From NCBI GenBank assembly GCA_041659405.1, contig JBAZYK010000003.1, positions 127,651 through 159,650 of the forward strand: 32,000 bases of DNA. The letters are read 5' to 3'. The notes under the pieces are model-generated. The model ran no database searches. It saw only the letters and a list, made by a program, of their open reading frames with translations, and had not been told where the DNA came from. Below, piece after piece: positions 7,716 through 30,632 of this stretch. The position numbers and the translations under genes were made by a program. Source of the stretch: Candidatus Altimarinota bacterium (GTDB lineage Bacteria > Patescibacteriota > Gracilibacteria > UBA1369). The first letter of the stretch is position 1; every line of letters begins with the position of its first letter.

Positions 7716-10700
7716 CTAAAACGCAAAGACCCTCACAATAATCTTGGCAGCTTCACCGCGGGTGAGGTTGTTGTTTGGCCCAAACAGGTTTAACGGGTTT
7801 CCCTGGCCGTCAACATATCCGGAGATAAAGCTGTGATCAACCGCAAACGAAATGTATCTATAATACCACGCTGTTGCAGAAACATCAGTAAAAGTTAGCG
7901 CGTTTCCATGAATTTCCTGATCGGCATAGATTGTTGCCAAGACGACTTTTAGGGCTTCTGCTCGAGTGATTTGGTTAAACGGCAGGAAGTAATTTTTGGA
8001 ACCGACCACAACTCCCAATGATTTTGCTTTAGAAACGGCTGCACTAAACCAATCGGTTGTGTGTACATCAAAGAATGGATTTTCGGTGGCTGCCGGCAGT
8101 GTTGGGAACTGGCACTGCATCACAATTTTCACCAATTCCGCTCTGGAAATTGTATCATTTGGTCGATATTCGTTAAGGAGATTCCCGTTTGCATCTTTAT
8201 ATCCTTGAACATCACATTTCTGCTGGAGTTTTTCGATATAGGTTTCAGCCCAATGGTTTTGGGTATCTGTGAAAAGTGCTTGCGCTACCGGTTGTGTTTG
8301 AGGTTGTTGCGCCGGTTGCGCTGGTTGATTATTCTGAGTTGGCTGAGTATTAAAAATAACGCCACTGCCGCCGGTGGTAATCGTGAATGAATTAATTCCA
8401 AGTGCCGTACCGGCATTTCCGGTTGCATCGGTAACAAGAATAGTACAGCCGGAATGAGTTCCAAGACTCATTGATTGAAATGTAATAGTATTGTCACCGG
8501 AAATTGCGCTGGTGGTTAAGCTTAAACAACTTCCTGAATATGTGATTGTTCCAGCTTCATCAGAACTGAATGTATAATTAGGAGTTGAGTCGATGGTTGA
8601 ACTTGGAACTGCGAGAACTTCGGCTAAAGTTGGGGCGGTATTATCGATTGTGAATGTGGATCCGCTTGTTGGAACGGCTGTGATAACATTTTCCGCGACA
8701 TCGGTTCCAATCGACATTGAAACAGTTGCAGTTGCAATGTTTCCAGCCGGTACATCCAAATCATACGTATATTCCGTGGTACTAACTTTTGTCATGGCTG
8801 TTGCCGACAAAACCGCATTATCAACTGCAATTTTAACTACAGGTGAGTCTGCCATTGGTTCATTAAATGTTGCTTTGATTATTAATGTATTAGCGTTTCT
8901 AACTGATTCTGTTGAGGCGTATGTAACCCCGGCATCTTTTGAATATGTAATCGCTGCGGTTGGCGCGGTTGTATCAAAAGTCACCGCTGTTCTGCTAACC
9001 GCTGTTGCGGCGTTTCCCGCGTCATCGGTTGCGTTGAATGCAAATGTATAGACGGCTCCGCTAACCAATCCGCTGGAATCACTCGTACATCCGTTTGTTG
9101 TATCCGAAAGATCCAAGTTCGCATGTGCTCCGGTATTTTTCGCTGTACCGACTAACGTACAGGTATGCGGAGCGCTGCCATCTGCCGTTCCTGAAGTTTG
9201 TGAAATTAAAATTGTTCCACTCGCGACTGCTTCGCTCAATGTATAACTCACATCGGATGAAGTGGTGACATTATTTATTGAAGTACTTGCGGTTGGGCTC
9301 ACGCTGCTGAATACCGGGATAATTGTATCGATTGTGTAATCGCTTGTGTCGGTAACGGTTGTTTGGTTTCCTGCGTTGTCTGTAACGGTCACGGTCACAT
9401 TGTTGGTTGCATCATCTTGGCTGTCCATGGCGCCGGATAGTGATGTTGTCCAAGTATCTGATGAATTACTTCCAACCAAAGCCGTATCGCCAGCTTTAAA
9501 GTTTGCCGCATTAAAACTCACGGAAGAAATCGTGTCCGTGTTATTGTCGCCGGTCGCAAGTGTATCGTCCCAGGTTGGCACTGCGGTATTTCCATTCTTA
9601 AACGCGCCGCCCGTTCCCGTTGCTCCCGTTACGGAAATATTTGCCGCGGTTAATGTGGGCGCGATATTATCAACCGTCGCATTGGTTGTATCCGCTGCCG
9701 TAGTTGCATTTCCCGCATCATCCGTCGCTGTCACGGAAACATTTCTGTTTGTAGTGTCGATTATGCCTGCAATAACAGGAAAAGTTGCCGTCCAGGTTCC
9801 ACTTGAATTGGTTGCAGCGACTGCCGCTCCTCCTCCAAATTGGCTAAAATCAACCGTAACGGTTGAAATTGTATCCGAGTTATTTTGTCCTCCAGCGGTA
9901 TTATTCCAGGTTGCCGTTACAGTATCGTTAATCTTATACGCGCCGCCCGTTCCACTTCCTCCGGAAATTGAAATATATGCATCGGTCACAGTTGGCGGCA
10001 AAGTATCCACCGCAAAAGCTGAAGAATACATGGTTGTTCCGGTTGCTGTTCCGTTGTTTGGCGTGATCCGCAGCCAAACGGTTAAATCATTCGTGTTGGG
10101 AATATCCGTAGCCGCGTTCCAGGCAAATGTAAGGGCAACGGAGCCATCGTTATTTGTATCAATTCCGGAAATGGTATTGGTGGAAATAGTCACACCATTT
10201 CCCTCTCCATTTTCAGAAGCGGATGCAATTGTGGCGTTAACCCAGGTCACATTGTTTGTGGAATATTCTACAGAAACAGATGTTGTGCCCAAACCCGCAT
10301 CAACAATTGTTGAAGTGGCGGTGACAAGAGACGCGGAAGTCTGCGAGGCATTTGGTTTACTGGCGACCGGAGCGGTGGTGGCGGGAATGGTGGTGGTGTT
10401 GAGAATAACTTTCACATGGCCCACAGGGGAAGCTGAATCTGCTCCGGCAATATCAGTTTTCCCATCTGCATTAAAATCACCTGTGACTAAAACCCAATTA
10501 CCTCCTGTTGTATAGTCTGTCTTCGCACCAAAGGTTCCGTCTCCTACACCTAATAGGACTGAATCTTTGCTACCACTAATTCCTACAACAAGATCGGTTT
10601 CTCCATCTGCATTAAAGTCGCCTGTAGCTGTTCCAAATGTATGAGCCCCTATAGCAGTATTTGCTGCCGCACCAAAAGTTCCATCTCCAGTGGGAGAACC

Positions 10701-11573
10701 TAAGAGAACTGAAATGTTATTATCAGCATAATTTGCCACAAAAAGATCGAGTATGCCATCTGCATTGAAGTAGCCTGCGGCCATAGAGATTGAATTACCT
10801 CCTGTAATGTAGTTTGCTGCCGCACCAAAAGTTCCAAGTCCCGTACCTAATAAGACTGAGACGCCACCGGCAGTACCTTTTGCATCAGCCAGGTCAAGAT
10901 TACCATCACCATTGAAGTCGCCCATAATCAAATATTGTGGACCAGTTCCCGCGGCATAGTTTGTTGCCGTACCAAAAGCTCCATTTCCATCACCTAATAA
11001 AACTGAAATGTTGTTCGTGCTAAAATTTACCACAGCTAAATCGAGCTTACCATCACCATCAAAGTCGCCTGCAACAGCCACCATTGGAGCAGTCCCTACA
11101 GGGTAATTTACTGCTGTATTGAATGTCCCATCTCCTCTACCCAACAAAATTGAGACATTGTTATCACTATAATTTGGCACAGCAAGATCAGTTTTGCCAT
11201 CACCATTAAAGTCACCTGCAACTGATGAAATTGGATTTGCTCCTACAGCGTATGGCACCGCCGCACCAAAAGTCCCATTTCCAATGGAAGAACCCAACAG
11301 AACTGACACAGTGTTACCATAAACATCTGCTATAGAAAAATCAAAAATACCATCTCCATTGAAATCACCTTTGGTTATTGAATACGAACCATCTCCTTCG
11401 TTATAACTCGCATCCGCAGCAAACGTCACCGCCGCATGCGCCGATTTTGTTGATAACCCTAAAAATCCTATCCCAATAAATAAAAAGGATAACGCAAAAA
11501 TCCCTAACTTTTTTAAATTTGTTCCAAAGTTATAGACTGAATTATTTTCCATTTGTTTTTTATTTTTTTGCAT
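7716..11573 (-). CDS. Giant surface protein P1: signal peptide, 7 FG-GAP/VCBS repeats, Ig-like domain array, Q/P linker, 3 SLH domains
   Basis: 1285 aa. Signal peptide ending 'KSAHA|AV'. Seven repeats of '(G/Y)(D)F(N/D)(G/A)DG..D' with 'VSVLLG.G.GTFG' (about nt 10398-11411). Tandem domains of about 100 aa, each ending '(V/I/F)D(T/N)xxPT'. Linker 'QPTQNNQPAQPAQQPQTQP'. Three SLH-like units (nt 7719-8279): 'FTDTQNHWAETYI..', 'FFDVHTTDWFSAAV..ITRAEALKVV', 'FTDVSATAWYYRYI..LTRGEAAKIIV'. Confidence 0.85.
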   Translation of the reverse strand: MQKNKKQMENNSVYNFGTNLKKLGIFALSFLFIGIGFLGLSTKSAHAAVTFAADASYNEGDGSYSITKGDFNGDGIFDFSIADVYGNTVSVLLGSSIGNGTFGAAVPYAVGANPISSVAGDFNGDGKTDLAVPNYSDNNVSILLGRGDGTFNTAVNYPVGTAPMVAVAGDFDGDGKLDLAVVNFSTNNISVLLGDGNGAFGTATNYAAGTGPQYLIMGDFNGDGNLDLADAKGTAGGVSVLLGTGLGTFGAAANYITGGNSISMAAGYFNADGILDLFVANYADNNISVLLGSPTGDGTFGAAANTAIGAHTFGTATGDFNADGETDLVVGISGSKDSVLLGVGDGTFGAKTDYTTGGNWVLVTGDFNADGKTDIAGADSASPVGHVKVILNTTTIPATTAPVASKPNASQTSASLVTATSTIVDAGLGTTSVSVEYSTNNVTWVNATIASASENGEGNGVTISTNTISGIDTNNDGSVALTFAWNAATDIPNTNDLTVWLRITPNNGTATGTTMYSSAFAVDTLPPTVTDAYISISGGSGTGGAYKINDTVTATWNNTAGGQNNSDTISTVTVDFSQFGGGAAVAATNSSGTWTATFPVIAGIIDTTNRNVSVTATDDAGNATTAADTTNATVDNIAPTLTAANISVTGATGTGGAFKNGNTAVPTWDDTLATGDNNTDTISSVSFNAANFKAGDTALVGSNSSDTWTTSLSGAMDSQDDATNNVTVTVTDNAGNQTTVTDTSDYTIDTIIPVFSSVSPTASTSINNVTTSSDVSYTLSEAVASGTILISQTSGTADGSAPHTCTLVGTAKNTGAHANLDLSDTTNGCTSDSSGLVSGAVYTFAFNATDDAGNAATAVSRTAVTFDTTAPTAAITYSKDAGVTYASTESVRNANTLIIKATFNEPMADSPVVKIAVDNAVLSATAMTKVSTTEYTYDLDVPAGNIATATVSMSIGTDVAENVITAVPTSGSTFTIDNTAPTLAEVLAVPSSTIDSTPNYTFSSDEAGTITYSGSCLSLTTSAISGDNTITFQSMSLGTHSGCTILVTDATGNAGTALGINSFTITTGGSGVIFNTQPTQNNQPAQPAQQPQTQPVAQALFTDTQNHWAETYIEKLQQKCDVQGYKDANGNLLNEYRPNDTISRAELVKIVMQCQFPTLPAATENPFFDVHTTDWFSAAVSKAKSLGVVVGSKNYFLPFNQITRAEALKVVLATIYADQEIHGNALTFTDVSATAWYYRYISFAVDHSFISGYVDGQGNPLNLFGPNNNLTRGEAAKIIVRVFAF
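8958..9290 (-). repeat. 333-bp block 100% identical to 22454-22786 (inside P2)
   Basis: Base-by-base comparison at a constant offset of 13496 nt shows no mismatches. Both copies are flanked by a mismatch on each side. It encodes 'PTASTSINNVTTSSDVSYTLSEAVASGTILISQTSGTADGSAPHTCTLVGTAKNTGAHANLDLSDTTNGCTSDSSGLVSGAVYTFAFNATDDAGNAATAVSRTAVTFDTTAPT'. Confidence 0.95.
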
Positions 11574-20644: not shown

Positions 20645-23600
20645 CTAAAACGCAAAAACCCTCACAATAATCTTGGCTGCTTCACCGCGGGTTAGGTTAT
20701 TGTTTGGGCCAAACAGGTTTAACGGGTTCCCCTGGCCGTCGACATATCCGGAAACGATGTTTTTAAGCACTGCGGTATAAATATATTTTCCATACCACGC
20801 GCCCTTGATTGTATCCGTAAATGTTAATGCCCCATCAACAATTTGCGCTTCAAGATAATTAACCAAAAGTATCATTTTGGTGGCTTCTGCACGGGTAACA
20901 GGCTGGATCGGCTTAAAGATTGTTCCATTTTGATAACCAATCACAATATTTAAGATTTTTGCTTTGGCCACGGCAGGTGCAAACCACGAATCTTTTGGCA
21001 CATCTTTAAACGGATCATTTAGAGGATTTGGAAGTGTCGCATATTTGCACTGCATAAACATTTTTGCATATTCGGCTCTGCTGATTTGGTTGTTTGGTCG
21101 ATATTCATTAAGTAGATTTCCATCTGCGTCTTTGTATCCTTGAACATTGCATTTCTGTTGGAGTTTTTCGATATAGGTTTGTGCCCAGTGGTTTTGAGTA
21201 TCTGTGAAAAGTGCTTGTGTTGCCGGTTGAGTTTGAGGTTGTTGCGCCGGTTGTGTTGGCGGTTGCGTTGCCAGTTGTGTTGGCTCTTGCGTTTGGGTGG
21301 TTGGAGTTGTTGGTGTAGTAGTTGTTGTTGTTGTAGTCGAGCTTCCGCCGCCACCACCACCTCCGCCGCTGCTGCTGCTCTGATTAACGATTATGGTGTC
21401 TGCGGTCACTGCCGAATCTTGATATATTGTGGCATCACCGCTTGTTGTGACTGTAATGGTATATGCTCCCGTAGAGCCAATCGACCCGGATGTGACTATA
21501 TTTTGAATTGTACAGCTTTCTGCAGCCGCTGCCTGTTCACTTCCACCACTCCTGGCAAGAATAACTGTTTGTGAAGAAACTGTTGTCGTGATTGAACCAT
21601 CCATTGTTGAACAAACTCCCGCTGAAGCTGATGCAACATTAAACCCTGATCCAAATGTAATCTTGATTTTGTCGGTAGCTGCAATTGTTCCATTTGGTGT
21701 AAAGGTGGCTGTTGCCGTTGTGGATGATCCAATTCCATACGTGGATAACGACACATCTGTTGATGATAATGATGCTGCGGTTTCAACAACCGTATTATTG
21801 TCATGAACCAGGTTTGTATTGGACGCCATATCTGTCACCGCCAATGCGTCTACATCCAGCACAACCGCTCCGCCATCTCCTCCTGTTGTCCCTGAAATAG
21901 CTATTGCGGCTGCACGTTGCGCGGCGGTTAATGTGAAAGTTAGACTCGTCGCGTCCACATTGGCAGGCGCGGCTGTCAGGCTCACGACATCTGTTCCGGT
22001 TATATTATTTAGATGAAAACCACTCGCAACCGTTGCGCTTGCATCCATGATTTCACTGAAAGTTGTCACCATTACAGCCGTACCATAGTTAATTGTTGTT
22101 GAAACTACGACCGGTTTGGCCGCATCGGTAAGATTCACCGCTGTCCAGGTTTGTAACTGGTTTCCGGCTGCATCCGAAATTTCTCTGGCTCCATTATCGG
22201 TATACGCAATAGTTGGAGCTGTTGTATGGCTGGTTATGTTTGAATTTCCCAATGTTCCCAAAACCAGACGCACCGTTGAAGTATCAGGATAACTCAGGGT
22301 TCCGGAAGTCAAAACCGATCCGGTAATATCATTGGCCACATACGCAAAATCGGCAATTGTTGCCGTCTGCGTTGAAACAGGTTCCGAAAGGGTTAATGTA
22401 ACACGATCAACTCGTCCATCGTTATCTGAATCTTCATAAACTTTTGCGGAAATGGTTGGCGCGGTTGTATCAAAAGTCACCGCTGTTCTGCTAACCGCTG
22501 TTGCGGCGTTTCCCGCGTCATCGGTTGCGTTGAATGCAAATGTATAGACGGCTCCGCTAACCAATCCGCTGGAATCACTCGTACATCCGTTTGTTGTATC
22601 CGAAAGATCCAAGTTCGCATGTGCTCCGGTATTTTTCGCTGTACCGACTAACGTACAGGTATGCGGAGCGCTGCCATCTGCCGTTCCTGAAGTTTGTGAA
22701 ATTAAAATTGTTCCACTCGCGACTGCTTCGCTCAATGTATAACTCACATCGGATGAAGTGGTGACATTATTTATTGAAGTACTTGCCGTTGGGCTCACGC
22801 TGGTGAAAACGGGAATGATTGTATCGATTGTGTAATCGTTTGTGCCGGTTGCAGATGCGGTGTTTCCTCCATTATCCGTGATGGTTACGGTCACATTGTT
22901 GGTTGCATCATCCTGGCTGTCCATGGCGCCGGATAGCGATGTTGTCCAAGTATCTGATGAATTACTTCCAACCAAAGCCGTATCCCCCGCTTTAAAGTTT
23001 GCTGCGTTAAAGCTCACGGATGAAATTGTATCCGTATTATTATCGCCGGTCGCAAGTGTATCGTCCCAGGTTGGCACTGCGGTATTTCCATTTTTAAACG
23101 CTCCACCGGTTCCCGTTGCTCCAGTCACGGATATTTTTGCGGCGGAAATTGTTGGCGCAACATTGTCCACGCTGATCGCATCGGAAGCTGTTGTTGCAGT
23201 GTTCCCCGCGTTATCGGTGACGGTGATTATAAATGTCAGGGCACCGGTATCCAATGCGCCGGCGGTAACAACCGTAGATTCCGAAGTAGCCGCAAGTGTA
23301 GCCTGGCCGGTTAATGTTGTTAAATTTATTGTTGTTGTATCGGTATCGGAAGCATCAAGCGTAACTGCACTTTGTGTAACTTTATCCTGATTTGTTGAAC
23401 CGTCATTTAACGCAGCAACACTCGCCGTCCCATTATCCGTTGAAATCGTTAACGTTCCATTTGCGCTGATGATTGGCGCAACGCTATCCACAGTAGCATT
23501 TGTTGTATCAGAAGCCGTTGCTGCGTTTCCCGCATCATCGGTTGCAGTGACGGAAACGTTTCGGTTTGTTGTATCAATTGCTCCTGCAGCTATTTCATAT

Positions 23601-29513: not shown

Positions 29514-30632
29514 ATGCAAACACCCAATCTCACAACCAGCAACCTTAAAATTATCGACGACCAAAATATCACAACCCTAAACGACCAGGAACTTCTTGCC
29601 ATGGACGACCAAAAATTGTTTGCGATGTGCCAAAAATATGGAGAACAAGCGCGAATCTGGCGTCAGAAATTTGCCGGACTACTTCCGGAAGTAAACAAAC
29701 GCCGCTTGTATGAGCGCAAAGGCTTTGAATCGATTTTCGTATTTGCCAAAAAATTGGCTAGTATGAGCGAACTGCAAGTACGACGAGCGCTCAATCTTAA
29801 AGAAAAATTCAAAGAAATGCCCATGCTGCAAAATCTTTTAATCAACGGTGAAGTTAGCATGAATAAACTCGCGCGCGTGGCTTCAATCGCAACTCCAAAA
29901 AATCAGGAAATTTTGGCTGAACAGGCAAAAATCCTTTCAAATCGAGCCCTGGAAACTTTTGTGAAAGATGAACGAACCGCAAAAGAAAATTCGGACCAAA
30001 ATGATCCAACCAAACTCATTGAAAGCGAAACCCAAAACGGCAGTATCAAAAATAAAAATAGCTTCCAGAAGCCACTTTTTGACCTTAAATCTGTGCACGT
30101 GCACACGCAAACAACAGATCTTTTCGAGGATGTCAAATTGCTCGAAAAACTTTCGTCGGAACTTAAAACAAAACTAAAAGAACTCGACCAAAAAGGCTTG
30201 GACATCAATCAAATTCTGCTCAAACTTTTGCAAAATCGTGAAGAAGAAATCGCAGCAGAAAAAGAAAAAATCGGCGAAGCAATCGTGGCAGAGCAGTTAA
30301 TGCAACAGCAGGCAAAAAGCCAGAAACAAGCGCTGAATGCACAAAATCAGGCTGCCAACACACAGATTCTCGCGGAAATTCCAACAAAAAAGCCATCACG
30401 CTACCTCAATGTGAAAATTAAAAACGTGCTTAAAAAAGAATTCGGTGATAAATGTTCGATTCCAGGTTGCAACAATCTTGCAAAACCAAATCACCACACG
30501 CAAAGGTTTGGACTAAGCCAAAATAACGACCCACGTTTTCTGGCCCCGCTTTGTCCGCAACATCACGAAATCGCGCATTCGATTGACCAAAAATATCAAT
30601 TCAGAAAACATCTGGCAATTTGCGCGACCTGA
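29514..30632 (+). CDS. HNH endonuclease-domain protein with a DUF222-like N-terminal region
   Basis: 372 aa. C-terminal HNH/zinc motif 'CSIPGCNNLAKPNHHTQRFGLSQNNDPRFLAPLCPQHHEIAH'. The N-terminal 'ARIWRQKFAGLLPEVNKRRLYERKGFESIFVFAKKLASMSELQVRRALNL' resembles the DUF222/13E12-type domain. The centre is a K/E/Q-rich coiled region. Confidence 0.75.
   Translation: MQTPNLTTSNLKIIDDQNITTLNDQELLAMDDQKLFAMCQKYGEQARIWRQKFAGLLPEVNKRRLYERKGFESIFVFAKKLASMSELQVRRALNLKEKFKEMPMLQNLLINGEVSMNKLARVASIATPKNQEILAEQAKILSNRALETFVKDERTAKENSDQNDPTKLIESETQNGSIKNKNSFQKPLFDLKSVHVHTQTTDLFEDVKLLEKLSSELKTKLKELDQKGLDINQILLKLLQNREEEIAAEKEKIGEAIVAEQLMQQQAKSQKQALNAQNQAANTQILAEIPTKKPSRYLNVKIKNVLKKEFGDKCSIPGCNNLAKPNHHTQRFGLSQNNDPRFLAPLCPQHHEIAHSIDQKYQFRKHLAICAT

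Follow-up and report, generated by a model that had tools for sequence, protein, structure and literature searches.

The ligA and ligB genes of Leptospira code for paralogous surface proteins built from Ig-like repeats, in which a near-identical block of repeats is followed by divergence, and this arrangement has been attributed to recombination. The tufA and tufB duplicates of Proteobacteria and other phyla undergo gene conversion and are associated with the term "selection for functional uniformity" (Lathe and Bork 2001; Kondrashov et al. 2007; reviewed in PMC6053082). Histones and ubiquitin represent families that are kept alike by purifying selection alone under a birth-and-death model, the criterion for which is restated in that same review. 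For the mammalian HSP70 genes HSPA1A and HSPA1B, a further paper (PMC5865164) describes concurrent purifying selection and gene conversion for paralog similarity.

Here we examine a block of 84 codons that is present in two genes, P1 and P2, of an uncultured Peregrinibacteria (CPR) bacterium. Both genes lie in the window, which is the whole 32,000-nt stretch of DNA that was analysed. The two copies of the block code for the same amino acids and differ only at silent sites, and an earlier note interpreted this as the mark of a functionally critical module. We consider it probable that the pattern instead reflects purifying selection overlaid by concerted evolution through patchy gene conversion. 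The block thus provides a clean and quantified case in which an identical protein with silent paralog differences can mislead readers.

Architecture of P1 and P2

P1 (positions 7716-11573, minus strand) is an open reading frame for a protein of 1285 aa, and P2 (20645-26455, minus strand) for one of 1936 aa. The two loci are direct repeats located 13.5 kb apart. P1 comprises N-terminal FG-GAP repeats that form a propeller-type head (Pfam FG-GAP_3, 8.9e-42), Ig-like stalk repeats, a P/Q-rich linker, and three SLH wall-anchor domains (2e-26). P2 carries DUF2341 (6e-27) and other head domains, followed by the Ig-like stalk cassette of P1, a G/S/T/P/Q-rich linker, and three SLH domains (4e-27). The distal heads differ, whereas the stalk cassette and the wall anchor are common to both. 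There are 71 SLH matches genome-wide, with three SLH stretches per protein in P1 and P2, and a single match to PF04230 (pyruvyl-transferase, CsaB-type; 1e-46). Because SLH domains and a PF04230 gene are both present, P1 and P2 qualify as SLH-anchored cell-surface proteins, and they are paralogs of each other.

The block resides at 9387-9638 in P1 (minus strand; amino acids 646-729) and at 22883-23134 in P2 (minus strand; amino acids 1108-1191). Although it was originally described as a domain, structure prediction indicates that it is the first three quarters (strands A-F) of one Ig-like stalk repeat of ~110 residues, and that it ends in the middle of the beta-sandwich. An AlphaFold2 model of the whole repeat is all-beta with 9 strands (pLDDT 90.7). 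Its best Foldseek matches in the PDB are PKD and bacterial Ig-like domains, with probabilities of 0.99-1.0, weak E values of 0.035-0.08, and target-normalised TM scores of 0.59-0.66. The repeat scores 15.4 bits (E 0.026) against Pfam Big_13 (PF19077), below the 27-bit gathering cut-off, and has no match above the cut-offs of Pfam and NCBIfam. A PDB sequence search with the repeat found no relative at E<=1. The repeat carries conserved glycine-rich and tryptophan motifs, and its position in the protein suggests that it serves as a stalk or spacer repeat.

The neighboring Ig-like repeat, termed rep1 (9675-9974, minus strand; P1 amino acids 534-633; P2 23492-23791), was used as the unconverted comparator, with a dS of 1.11 and an omega of 0.094; P1 and P2 differ in it by 14 replacement codons. 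P2 alone carries an extra Ig-like repeat of 103 aa (23183-23491, minus strand), which separates rep1 from the block repeat, appears as an alignment gap and has a weak Big_13 match at P2 1006-1097. The search for the module elsewhere that the earlier note proposed yielded only four copies in the genome, all of them within P1 and P2, and only 78% identity in a relative of the same genus. Variation by a diversity-generating retroelement or by silent cassettes was also considered and rejected. No reverse-transcriptase family was found by a family search among the scanned ORFs of the window, there are no additional module copies, and all four bases occur among the differences.

Counts and chance expectations for the silent-only block

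Translation of the minus strand of both 252-nt copies yields the same 84 residues, ISVTGATG...NNVTVT. The codon alignment confirms the original count of about 20 synonymous and zero nonsynonymous changes, because there are exactly 20 base differences, all at codon position 3 and all synonymous. These include 13 transitions and 7 transversions, and their base direction is unremarkable (10 GC-to-AT, 6 AT-to-GC, and 4 neutral by hand count). Replacements bound the block on both sides, with N/K at the adjoining upstream codon and V/I at the adjoining downstream codon, and therefore it constitutes a maximal replacement-free run.

Downstream from the block, the Ig-like repeat continues into its variable final strands (9303-9386, minus strand; P1 amino acids 730-757; P2 22799-22882). 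These 28 codons include 9 with replacements, in agreement with the many replacements noted earlier for the next ~30 codons, and 7 with silent differences (NG86 10.5/10.5, dS 0.92, omega 0.20), and they are the most variable stretch in the family alignment. A single further silent difference occurs at 9291, after which P1 and P2 are identical from 9290 down to 8958. On sequence grounds, this 333-bp block (8958-9290, minus strand; P2 22454-22786) appears to be a very recent conversion tract, and other assemblies of the organism break within it.

Only 26.8% of random point changes in the block would be silent (transition bias 2), and the neutral probability that 20 of 20 are silent is 3.6e-12. 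Neutrality is therefore rejected outright, as the earlier note had supposed, and purifying selection acting on the amino acids is needed, especially in two patches that comprise 34 codons. By the NG86 method, the block has a dS of 0.42 and a dN of 0, which places the 95% upper bound on omega at 0.038. At an omega of 0.1, which holds for the neighboring repeat, the whole domain, and the comparison between species, 7.9 replacements are expected in the block and the probability of finding none is 3.5e-4. In the dN/dS analysis per domain that had been proposed, the block alone has a dN of 0, and the whole repeat that bears it has an omega of 0.10, equal to that of its neighbor.

The run of 20 silent-only codons is the longest among the 269 differing codons in alignable P1/P2 regions, and the next longest are 10, 7, 6, and 6. 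A longest-run test with shuffled labels, which allows for the post hoc choice of boundaries, gives P=1e-4. In six further pairs of recent paralogs from the same genome, all with long open frames, the longest run of silent-only differences is 3-11, and omega for such pairs is 0.06-0.33. The block is thus the extreme of a pattern that is common among the paralog pairs of this genome. A second silent-only stretch between P1 and P2 is formed by the last 35 codons of the SLH anchor (7719-7823, minus strand; P2 20648-20752), which exhibit 7 silent differences and 0 replacements (dS 0.34).

The constrained coding sequence might instead be an overlapping gene on the opposite strand, and an open frame of 389 aa indeed runs antisense across the block (9346-10515, plus strand), with only 2 amino acid differences in 83 codons. 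However, its third positions coincide with those of the sense frame, such that a change that is silent in the sense frame is almost always silent in antisense as well. The frame shrinks to 182 aa in the P2 counterpart (22842-23390), its 2 differences compare with 0 in the sense frame, and FG-GAP, SLH, and hundreds of homologs are all on the minus strand. We rejected the antisense frame as an artefact of composition and frame geometry, and its role as a gene is scarcely credible.

The differences could also be artificial if they were derived from mixed haplotypes or from a misresolved repeat, in which case the true copies would be identical or would differ in some other way. The source is a metagenome-assembled genome, the adjacent 333-bp repeat is where other assemblies break, and there is no independent assembly on record with the exact P2 product. 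Among 90% protein clusters, only a C-terminal fragment of P1 and an unrelated 49-aa protein were found. However, over 5858 nt, the P1 region is matched without a single difference by an independent ENA MEGAHIT contig. Identical runs within the block are at most 50 nt, and both versions run without a break into flanks that are specific to their copy (79% identity upstream and the variable segment downstream), so ordinary k-mers should separate the two. A 13:7 ratio of transitions to transversions that is confined to third positions is characteristic of biological change rather than error, and the assembly of a second species exhibits the same kind of pattern. An origin by strain mixture or misassembly is thus very improbable.

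Putative old patches and homogenised tracts

The block could have a single age, with silent sites that changed freely while exceptional purifying selection on a critical binding or interaction surface removed every replacement. This possibility is consistent with the count of 20 silent differences and 0 replacements, with the upper bound on omega of 0.038, and with two patches that are saturated at silent sites without a replacement. The confident prediction of an Ig-like fold and the conserved glycine-rich and tryptophan motifs might also be accommodated. However, flanking homologous DNA has a dS of 1.07, more than twice the 0.42 of the block (Fisher P=0.0023), which indicates that the block has been homogenised. 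The proposal that, unlike the 333-bp block, this region has had time to diverge is not supported, as 50 of the 84 codons contain only 3 differences, and most of the block is probably young through homogenisation, much as the 333-bp block is.

Further evidence comes from G001, a relative of the same genus. Searches of genome and metagenome collections found no relative closer than this one, at 74%-78% identity, and the comparison between species covers one sister genome in which the P2-like copy of the block repeat is unassembled. G001 differs from the block at 20 of 84 aligned positions, including a one-codon indel. P1 and P2 are 100% identical in amino acids and 92% identical in nucleotides across the block, whereas identity to the positional ortholog is 78% and about 70%, respectively. 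Likewise, a 128-codon piece differs at 52 nt between P1 and P2 and at 113-116 nt from G001. Silent divergence between the species is near saturation (dS 1.3-1.85), and the repeat evolves about twice as fast as RNR and UvrB (dN 0.153 versus 0.073-0.105).

One contig of G001 carries the order RNR-UvrB-(P1-like) and another carries IMPase-deacetylase/DUF4015-(P2-like), with the P2 gene syntenic with its P2-like counterpart and the head of the latter at 60% amino acid identity. This conserved synteny of both genes implies that P1 and P2 were separate loci before the species split. Similarity within the genome nonetheless exceeds similarity between the species, and the two copies have in common states that are derived when judged against G001 and outgroups, a one-codon insertion among them.

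Variability across the wider family is 0.485 inside the block and 0.468 in its flanks, and under this distribution the finding that 0 of 13 replacement codons fall within the block has a probability of 3e-7. Intrinsic constraint alone therefore cannot explain the identity of the block. Selection against replacements stands as part of the original interpretation, because neutrality is rejected and the patches are saturated without replacements, but constraint as the sole cause fails. Nor is this likely to be a uniquely critical module, given the 20 changes in the sister species, the equal variability of the family, and the ordinary omega of the repeat; ordinary conversion plus selection is the likely cause. 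The block should not be labeled in annotations as a special functional module.

The 20 differences are distributed unevenly, as two patches totaling 34 codons hold 17 of them and the other 50 codons hold 3. The first putative old patch (9597-9638, minus strand; P2 23093-23134) covers block codons 1-14, ISVTGATGTGGAFK, and carries 7 silent differences (pS 0.57) in the motif that the repeat family conserves most strongly. It is followed by a candidate homogenised tract, A (9549-9596, minus strand; P2 23045-23092; block codons 15-30), where the copies differ at 0 bases and the between-species dN is 0.31. Tract A also includes a one-codon insertion that is specific to this organism and present in both copies. 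The second putative old patch (9489-9548, minus strand; P2 22985-23044) covers block codons 31-50, GDNNTDTISSVSFNAANFKA, and its 10 silent differences amount to saturation (pS 0.77), with only moderate conservation across the wider family. Candidate tract B (9387-9488, minus strand; P2 22883-22984; block codons 51-84) has 3 silent differences, a dS of 0.13, and a between-species dN of 0.21. When combined, the patches have a pS of 0.67 and a between-species dN of 0.047, compared with a pS of 0.08 (dS 0.09; 3 differences between copies in 50 codons) and a dN of 0.24 for the tracts.

In the second patch, the P1 base is found in G001 at 7 of the 10 differing sites. A recent import of this patch into P1 from a G001-like lineage was considered, given a 29-nt run that is identical between P1 and G001 and a 7:2 sharing of states. 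By our own estimate, these signals are nonsignificant once protein conservation is allowed for, and the import was rejected.

Taken alone, the clustering of differences inside the block is marginal, with P values that range from 0.04 to 0.17 by statistic (sum of squared gaps, P=0.039; 20-codon scan, P=0.05; 34-codon minimum, P=0.09; largest gap, P=0.17). However, a partition derived from the P1-P2 silent differences alone predicts where the protein changes between species, which is at 3 of 34 patch codons versus 17 of 50 tract codons (P=0.009). Moreover, the codons with silent differences and the 20 codons at which the G001 protein differs do not overlap (P=0.0018), whereas a block of single age would be expected to yield an overlap of ~5. 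Given this result, along with the halved silent divergence, the end of the block in mid-domain, and a silent-only stretch on a different repeat in G001, a single-age block under exceptional constraint is improbable. The block was chosen as replacement-free, which means that variable stretches within it must be young, and this ascertainment explains part of the association.

Patchy conversion on top of purifying selection would account for these observations as follows. Homologous recombination between the P1 and P2 loci would repeatedly copy short tracts from gene to gene, and some 50 codons of the block would have been overwritten fairly recently to near base-for-base identity, including positions that vary between species in the protein. 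The two patches would have escaped recent overwriting, leaving their silent sites saturated while purifying selection removed replacements from what are probably the conserved core motifs of the repeat. Overwritten tracts and constrained patches together would then produce 20 silent differences and 0 replacements. We infer recombination as the mechanism, as well as where its tracts begin and end and the sequence in which events occurred, and the best reading is that the homogenising process is the same one that created the adjacent 333-bp identical block. The result would be conversion tracts finely interleaved with constrained patches rather than one old constrained block.

The same kind of pattern is present in the sister species, where the paralog pair of G001 has 10 silent differences and 0 replacements across 59 codons of rep1, beside contig breaks. 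Because the silent-only stretch is on rep1 in G001, and yet rep1 carries 14 replacement codons here, it is history and not the identity of the module that decides where such patterns appear. Concerted evolution would accordingly shape the large set of SLH-anchored surface proteins in at least two species of Peregrinibacteria and break their assemblies.

The mosaic partition still predicts 4.5-6.4 replacements, of which 3.3-4.7 should be in the patches, and the joint probability of finding none is about 0.002-0.01. This residual shortage (P about 0.01) leaves room for selection favoring uniform copies, by which both proteins need the same repeat sequence. One variant of this proposal invokes a common partner or mutual contact in the wall-anchored surface layer, and another holds that most replacements are adaptive and benefit either copy alike. 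Under either, conversion tracts that carry replacements would be favored and would erase nearby silent differences, while copy-specific replacements would be removed. The concentration of DNA identity where the protein changes between species would fit, as would the fast evolution of a repeat whose copies do not differ and the silent-only stretches in the SLH tail (7:0) and in G001 (10:0). There is also a precedent for the concept in the tuf duplicates (Kondrashov et al. 2007, cited in PMC6053082).

Polarisation by outgroups assigns 5 of the 20 between-species changes to this organism and 7 to G001, with 8 ambiguous, which are too few to choose between random and selected conversion. States clearly derived in this organism at block codons 25, 27, 61, and 65 are all in the low-divergence tracts, in accord with adaptive conversion, but another at codon 34 falls inside an old patch. 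The association between identity and protein change is in part the ascertainment effect. Uniformity is also not a requirement of the entire stalk, because 9 residues differ 1-28 codons downstream in the same repeat and 14 differ in rep1. Furthermore, by hand count, 6 of the 10 silent differences in the rep1 pair of G001 are in codons that differ from this organism, and therefore such avoidance is not general. We regard a need for uniform copies as unlikely, and just as unlikely that short conversion tracts under positive selection drive replacements from the gene in which they arose into the other. Of all the observations, the replacement shortage alone, if confirmed, would hint at this less ordinary cause. 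The repeat would then represent a contact surface shared within a CPR surface layer, and DNA identity would track the protein-variable positions, with silent differences surviving only where the protein never changes.

Relation to known concerted and constrained families

Similar to tufA and tufB, P1 and P2 are dispersed paralogs that predate speciation and yet are closer within a genome than between species, as recurrent conversion would explain, and their remaining differences in the block are silent, as those of the tuf genes mostly are. However, each tuf copy is a whole, highly conserved housekeeping gene, whereas P1 and P2 appear to be homogenised only in subdomain tracts of fast-evolving surface proteins. 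They also differ from tuf in a fine mosaic in which apparently old patches and apparently young tracts sit next to a variable segment left unconverted.

The old patches resemble histone and ubiquitin families in that an identical protein is paired with divergent silent sites. In those families, the protein is invariant across species and silent sites are as diverged as the age of the genes allows. The dN/dS of the block is likewise far below 1, but its silent sites have diverged less than half as much as those of its flanks, and its protein differs by 22% in the sister species.

Like ligA and ligB, P1 and P2 are paralogous surface proteins composed of bacterial Ig-like repeats with a shared block. 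The systems differ in repeat type (Big_2 versus an unclassified Big_13-like repeat), in attachment (lipoprotein versus SLH anchor), and in organism. The parallel with HSPA1A and HSPA1B is that both forces together are invoked to explain extreme paralog similarity, although that pair is a eukaryotic tandem duplicate of a conserved chaperone, whereas P1 and P2 are modular surface proteins of a bacterium.

Silent divergence between two surface-protein genes

The SLH-anchored surface protein P1 (window 7716-11573, minus strand; 1285 aa) carries N-terminal FG-GAP repeats, Ig-like repeats, a P/Q-rich linker, and three SLH domains. Its paralog P2 (20645-26455, minus strand; 1936 aa) comprises a head with DUF2341, the Ig-like cassette of P1 plus one extra repeat, the linker, and three SLH domains. 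Over 84 codons, P1 9387-9638 and P2 22883-23134 (minus strand) give the identical translation ISVTGATGTGGAFKNGNTAVPTWDDTLATGDNNTDTISSVSFNAANFKAGDTALVGSNSSDTWTTSLSGAMDSQDDATNNVTVT from DNA that differs at exactly 20 bases (13 transitions and 7 transversions), all of them silent and at third codon positions. Codon alignment of both whole genes bears out the counts of the earlier note for this block and its neighbors (20 silent and no replacement differences in the block), and shows the block to be flanked by replacements: the codon immediately upstream is N/K and the codon immediately downstream V/I. Of the 28 codons that come next, 9 differ by a replacement and 7 silently. Past them come a single silent difference at 9291 and then 333 bp (8958-9290) identical to 22454-22786, an identity that represents the most recent homogenization event. 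A second silent-only stretch closes the SLH anchors: their final 35 codons (7719-7823 and 20648-20752, minus strand) show 7 silent and no replacement differences and a dS of 0.34, in contrast to the middle of the SLH region, where dN is 0.53.

Because 26.8% of random changes in the block would be silent, the probability of 20 out of 20 is 3.6e-12, and the neutral expectation, against which so short a region had to be weighed, is excluded. By NG86, the block has a dS of 0.42, a dN of 0, and an omega whose upper bound is 0.038; for comparison, omega is 0.094 in the neighboring Ig-like repeat (rep1), 0.10 in the whole block-containing repeat, and 0.08-0.11 when the block is compared with G001, a relative of the same genus. 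At an omega of 0.1, ∼8 replacements would be expected (P(0)=3.5e-4). With 20 differing codons in a row that are silent only, the block stands clear of the runs ranking next in length (10, 7, 6, and 6), and shuffling the labels of the differing codons, which allows for the post-hoc boundaries of the block, gives P=1e-4. Among six further recent paralog pairs of this genome that have long open frames, omega ranges over 0.06-0.33 and silent-only runs of 9-11 are common. The block is the most extreme instance of a silent-only pattern that is itself common.

It is unlikely that an assembly or strain artifact produced the block differences, given that an independent contig carries the P1 region without a single difference over 5858 nt, that the differences lie at most 50 nt apart and are contiguous with copy-specific flanks, and that their mutational spectrum looks biological. 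Other assemblies of this organism break within the 333-bp identical stretch. In another public assembly, P0122 comprises no more than the C-terminal 454 aa of P1, starting inside that stretch where a 138-kb contig ends, and no independent assembly has a record of the exact P2 product.

Long antisense open frames at 9346-10515 and 22842-23390 (plus strand) cross the Ig-like repeats. They have their third positions in register with those of the sense frame, so they differ by only 2 aa (versus 0 in the sense frame), and the silent/replacement count alone therefore cannot separate the strands; these frames, whose lengths differ between the copies, were rejected as an explanation. Retroelement- or cassette-driven variation was likewise rejected, as there are no extra module copies and differences occur at all four bases. 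No reverse-transcriptase family was found among the window ORFs scanned.

The repeat and its genome

A confident AlphaFold2 model of a 128-residue piece around the block (pLDDT 90.7) is a nine-strand all-beta sandwich, for which the Foldseek matches are all weak (E 0.035-0.08) and fall on PKD and bacterial Ig-like domains. On the repeat, Pfam Big_13 reaches 15.4 bits, below the cut-off of 27, and a PDB sequence search with the repeat found no relative. The repeat spans approximately P1 residues 643 to 752. The block, previously described as a domain, covers only the first three quarters of this one repeat and stops in mid-domain.

The repeat subtype is present in other CPR genomes and beyond, and related repeats fill hundreds of giant repeat proteins. 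Identity to the G001 copy is 78% over the 84-aa block and 74% over a 127-aa piece. With the latter query, copies in an Uhrbacteria MAG (L024 6001-6354; 71%) and in a MAG labeled Gammaproteobacteria (L023 605-964; 66%) are nearly as close. This suggests either that the module has moved from lineage to lineage or that a small number of variable positions saturated quickly.

The host genome is a 1.5-Mb MAG (98.5% complete) whose relatives carry the labels Candidatus Peregrinibacteria or Peribacteria. It has 71 SLH-domain matches over many separate open frames and a single CsaB-type pyruvyl transferase, and its SLH-anchored surface proteome is unusually large for a CPR bacterium. A Peribacteria genome paper describes a cell envelope that is heavily invested in, with large extracellular proteins and S-layer genes (PMC4736985). 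The other genes in the window have housekeeping or envelope roles (helicase, TPR, LemA, two DUF2207, UvrB, class II RNR, deacetylase/DUF4015, and IMPase). A 372-aa ORF without a Pfam match (29514-30632, plus strand) has three paralogs in the genome (C1:166763-167897, C4:58630-59731, and C4:23937-24917) that are 71%-73% identical to it in nucleotides, two of them 93% identical to each other. Since the syntenic IMPase-deacetylase interval of G001 has no counterpart, the gene could be mobile.

An interspersed intergenic repeat family of ∼150-180 bp is represented by at least 10 copies at 84%-95% identity, including C5:14867-15042 (L032 ∼268-443), C6:98190-98368, C7:51483-51665, C9:18763-18933, and at least six more. 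No long open frame was found (there are stops in the frame examined), nor any Rfam match at E<=0.01. Identical peptide-like words can be read from either strand, suggestive of an inverted-repeat (MITE- or REP-like) element.

Constraint and probable homogenization

Purifying selection on a critical module is insufficient as an explanation of the block. Compared with its positional ortholog in G001, it shows differences at 20 of 84 aligned positions, a one-codon indel among them, and the dN to this ortholog is 0.153, about twice that of RNR (0.105) or UvrB (0.073). In a family alignment of 19 sequences, variability is 0.485 in the block and 0.468 in the flanks of the repeat; on this basis, 68% of the 13 replacement codons of the repeat would be expected in the block, and none is observed (P=3e-7). 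Moreover, block dS is less than half that of flanking homologous DNA (0.42 versus 1.07; Fisher P=0.0023), a reduction that homogenization brings about and purifying selection does not.

P1 and P2 were already separate loci in the common ancestor with G001, as follows from the split synteny there: RNR-UvrB-(P1-like) and IMPase-deacetylase/DUF4015-(P2-like) lie on different contigs. Over 128 codons, P1 and P2 differ at 52 nt, and either differs from G001 at 113-116. The pair also shares states derived relative to G001 and outgroups at block codons 25, 27, 34, 61, and 65, an inserted codon included. The G001 gene at the P1 position (after uvrB; C42/L030 6835-10017) has a glycine-rich repetitive head where P1 has FG-GAP repeats (window 10400-11573), on the same rep1-rep2 stalk; heads appear to have been swapped on a conserved stalk.

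Between the P2-like and P1-like genes of G001, 59 codons of rep1 show 10 silent differences and no replacements (L029/C20 6939-7118 and L030/C42 9245-9424); rep1 has 14 replacement codons between P1 and P2, which is a further argument against a critical module as the whole explanation. The G001 stretch adjoins contig breaks, with C20 ending inside rep1 and C42 shortly past the next repeat. This pair is an independent case of both the silent-only pattern and assembly breakage.

A probable mosaic within the block

Silent differences occupy block codons 1, 3, 4, 9, 10, 11, and 14; 31, 33, 35, 36, 38, 41, 43, 44, 49, and 50; and 66, 74, and 83. Two patches (codons 1-14 and 31-50; 34 codons in total) hold 17 of the 20, and the other 50 codons hold 3, a clustering that is marginal (P=0.039 and 0.05; two other statistics, 0.09 and 0.17). 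The patches are saturated between P1 and P2 (pS 0.67), have a between-species dN of 0.047, and include the most conserved motif of the family, GATGTGGAFK. The remaining tracts have a pS of 0.08 (dS 0.09) and are protein-variable between species (dN 0.24). The claim that the block had had time to diverge is not supported, given its dS relative to the flanks and these 50 codons.

Although set from P1-P2 silent differences alone, the partition foretells protein changes in G001 (3 of 34 patch codons versus 17 of 50 tract codons; P=0.009), part of which association is ascertainment, since a block selected as a replacement-free run necessarily has young variable stretches. None of the 20 silent-difference codons is among the 20 changed in G001 (P=0.0018). 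In patch 2, G001 has the base of P1 at 7 of 10 sites and that of P2 at 2, a nonsignificant difference that would be compatible with an old split there.

We consider it reasonably probable that the block is a composite of ordinary concerted evolution and purifying selection. Approximately 50 codons would have been overwritten fairly recently by short conversion tracts, while in two old patches the saturated silent differences would persist on account of the constrained core motifs encoded there; the sum would be 20 silent and no replacement differences. This mosaic model still expects 4.5-6.4 replacements (joint P(0) about 0.002-0.01), a shortage that speaks for selectively favored conversion of tracts bearing replacements, or “selection for functional uniformity” (Kondrashov et al. 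2007, as cited in PMC6053082). Such favored conversion also predicts that the homogenized tracts are the protein-variable ones. However, uniformity is clearly unneeded in the neighboring strands, which differ by 9 replacements, or in rep1, with its 14; the association of tracts with variable positions is partly the ascertainment effect; and silent differences in the G001 rep1 pair do not avoid variable codons (hand count). We regard this favored conversion as rather improbable.

Purifying selection is present, as the earlier note held, but the note's emphasis on a critical module was misplaced: the block is not a domain, is not invariant, and is not of a single age. The pattern is real and statistically non-random, and adds one more case to a known kind of process. 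Concerted evolution together with purifying selection is described for tuf and other prokaryotic paralogs in PMC6053082, and the same pairing is proposed here for P1 and P2.
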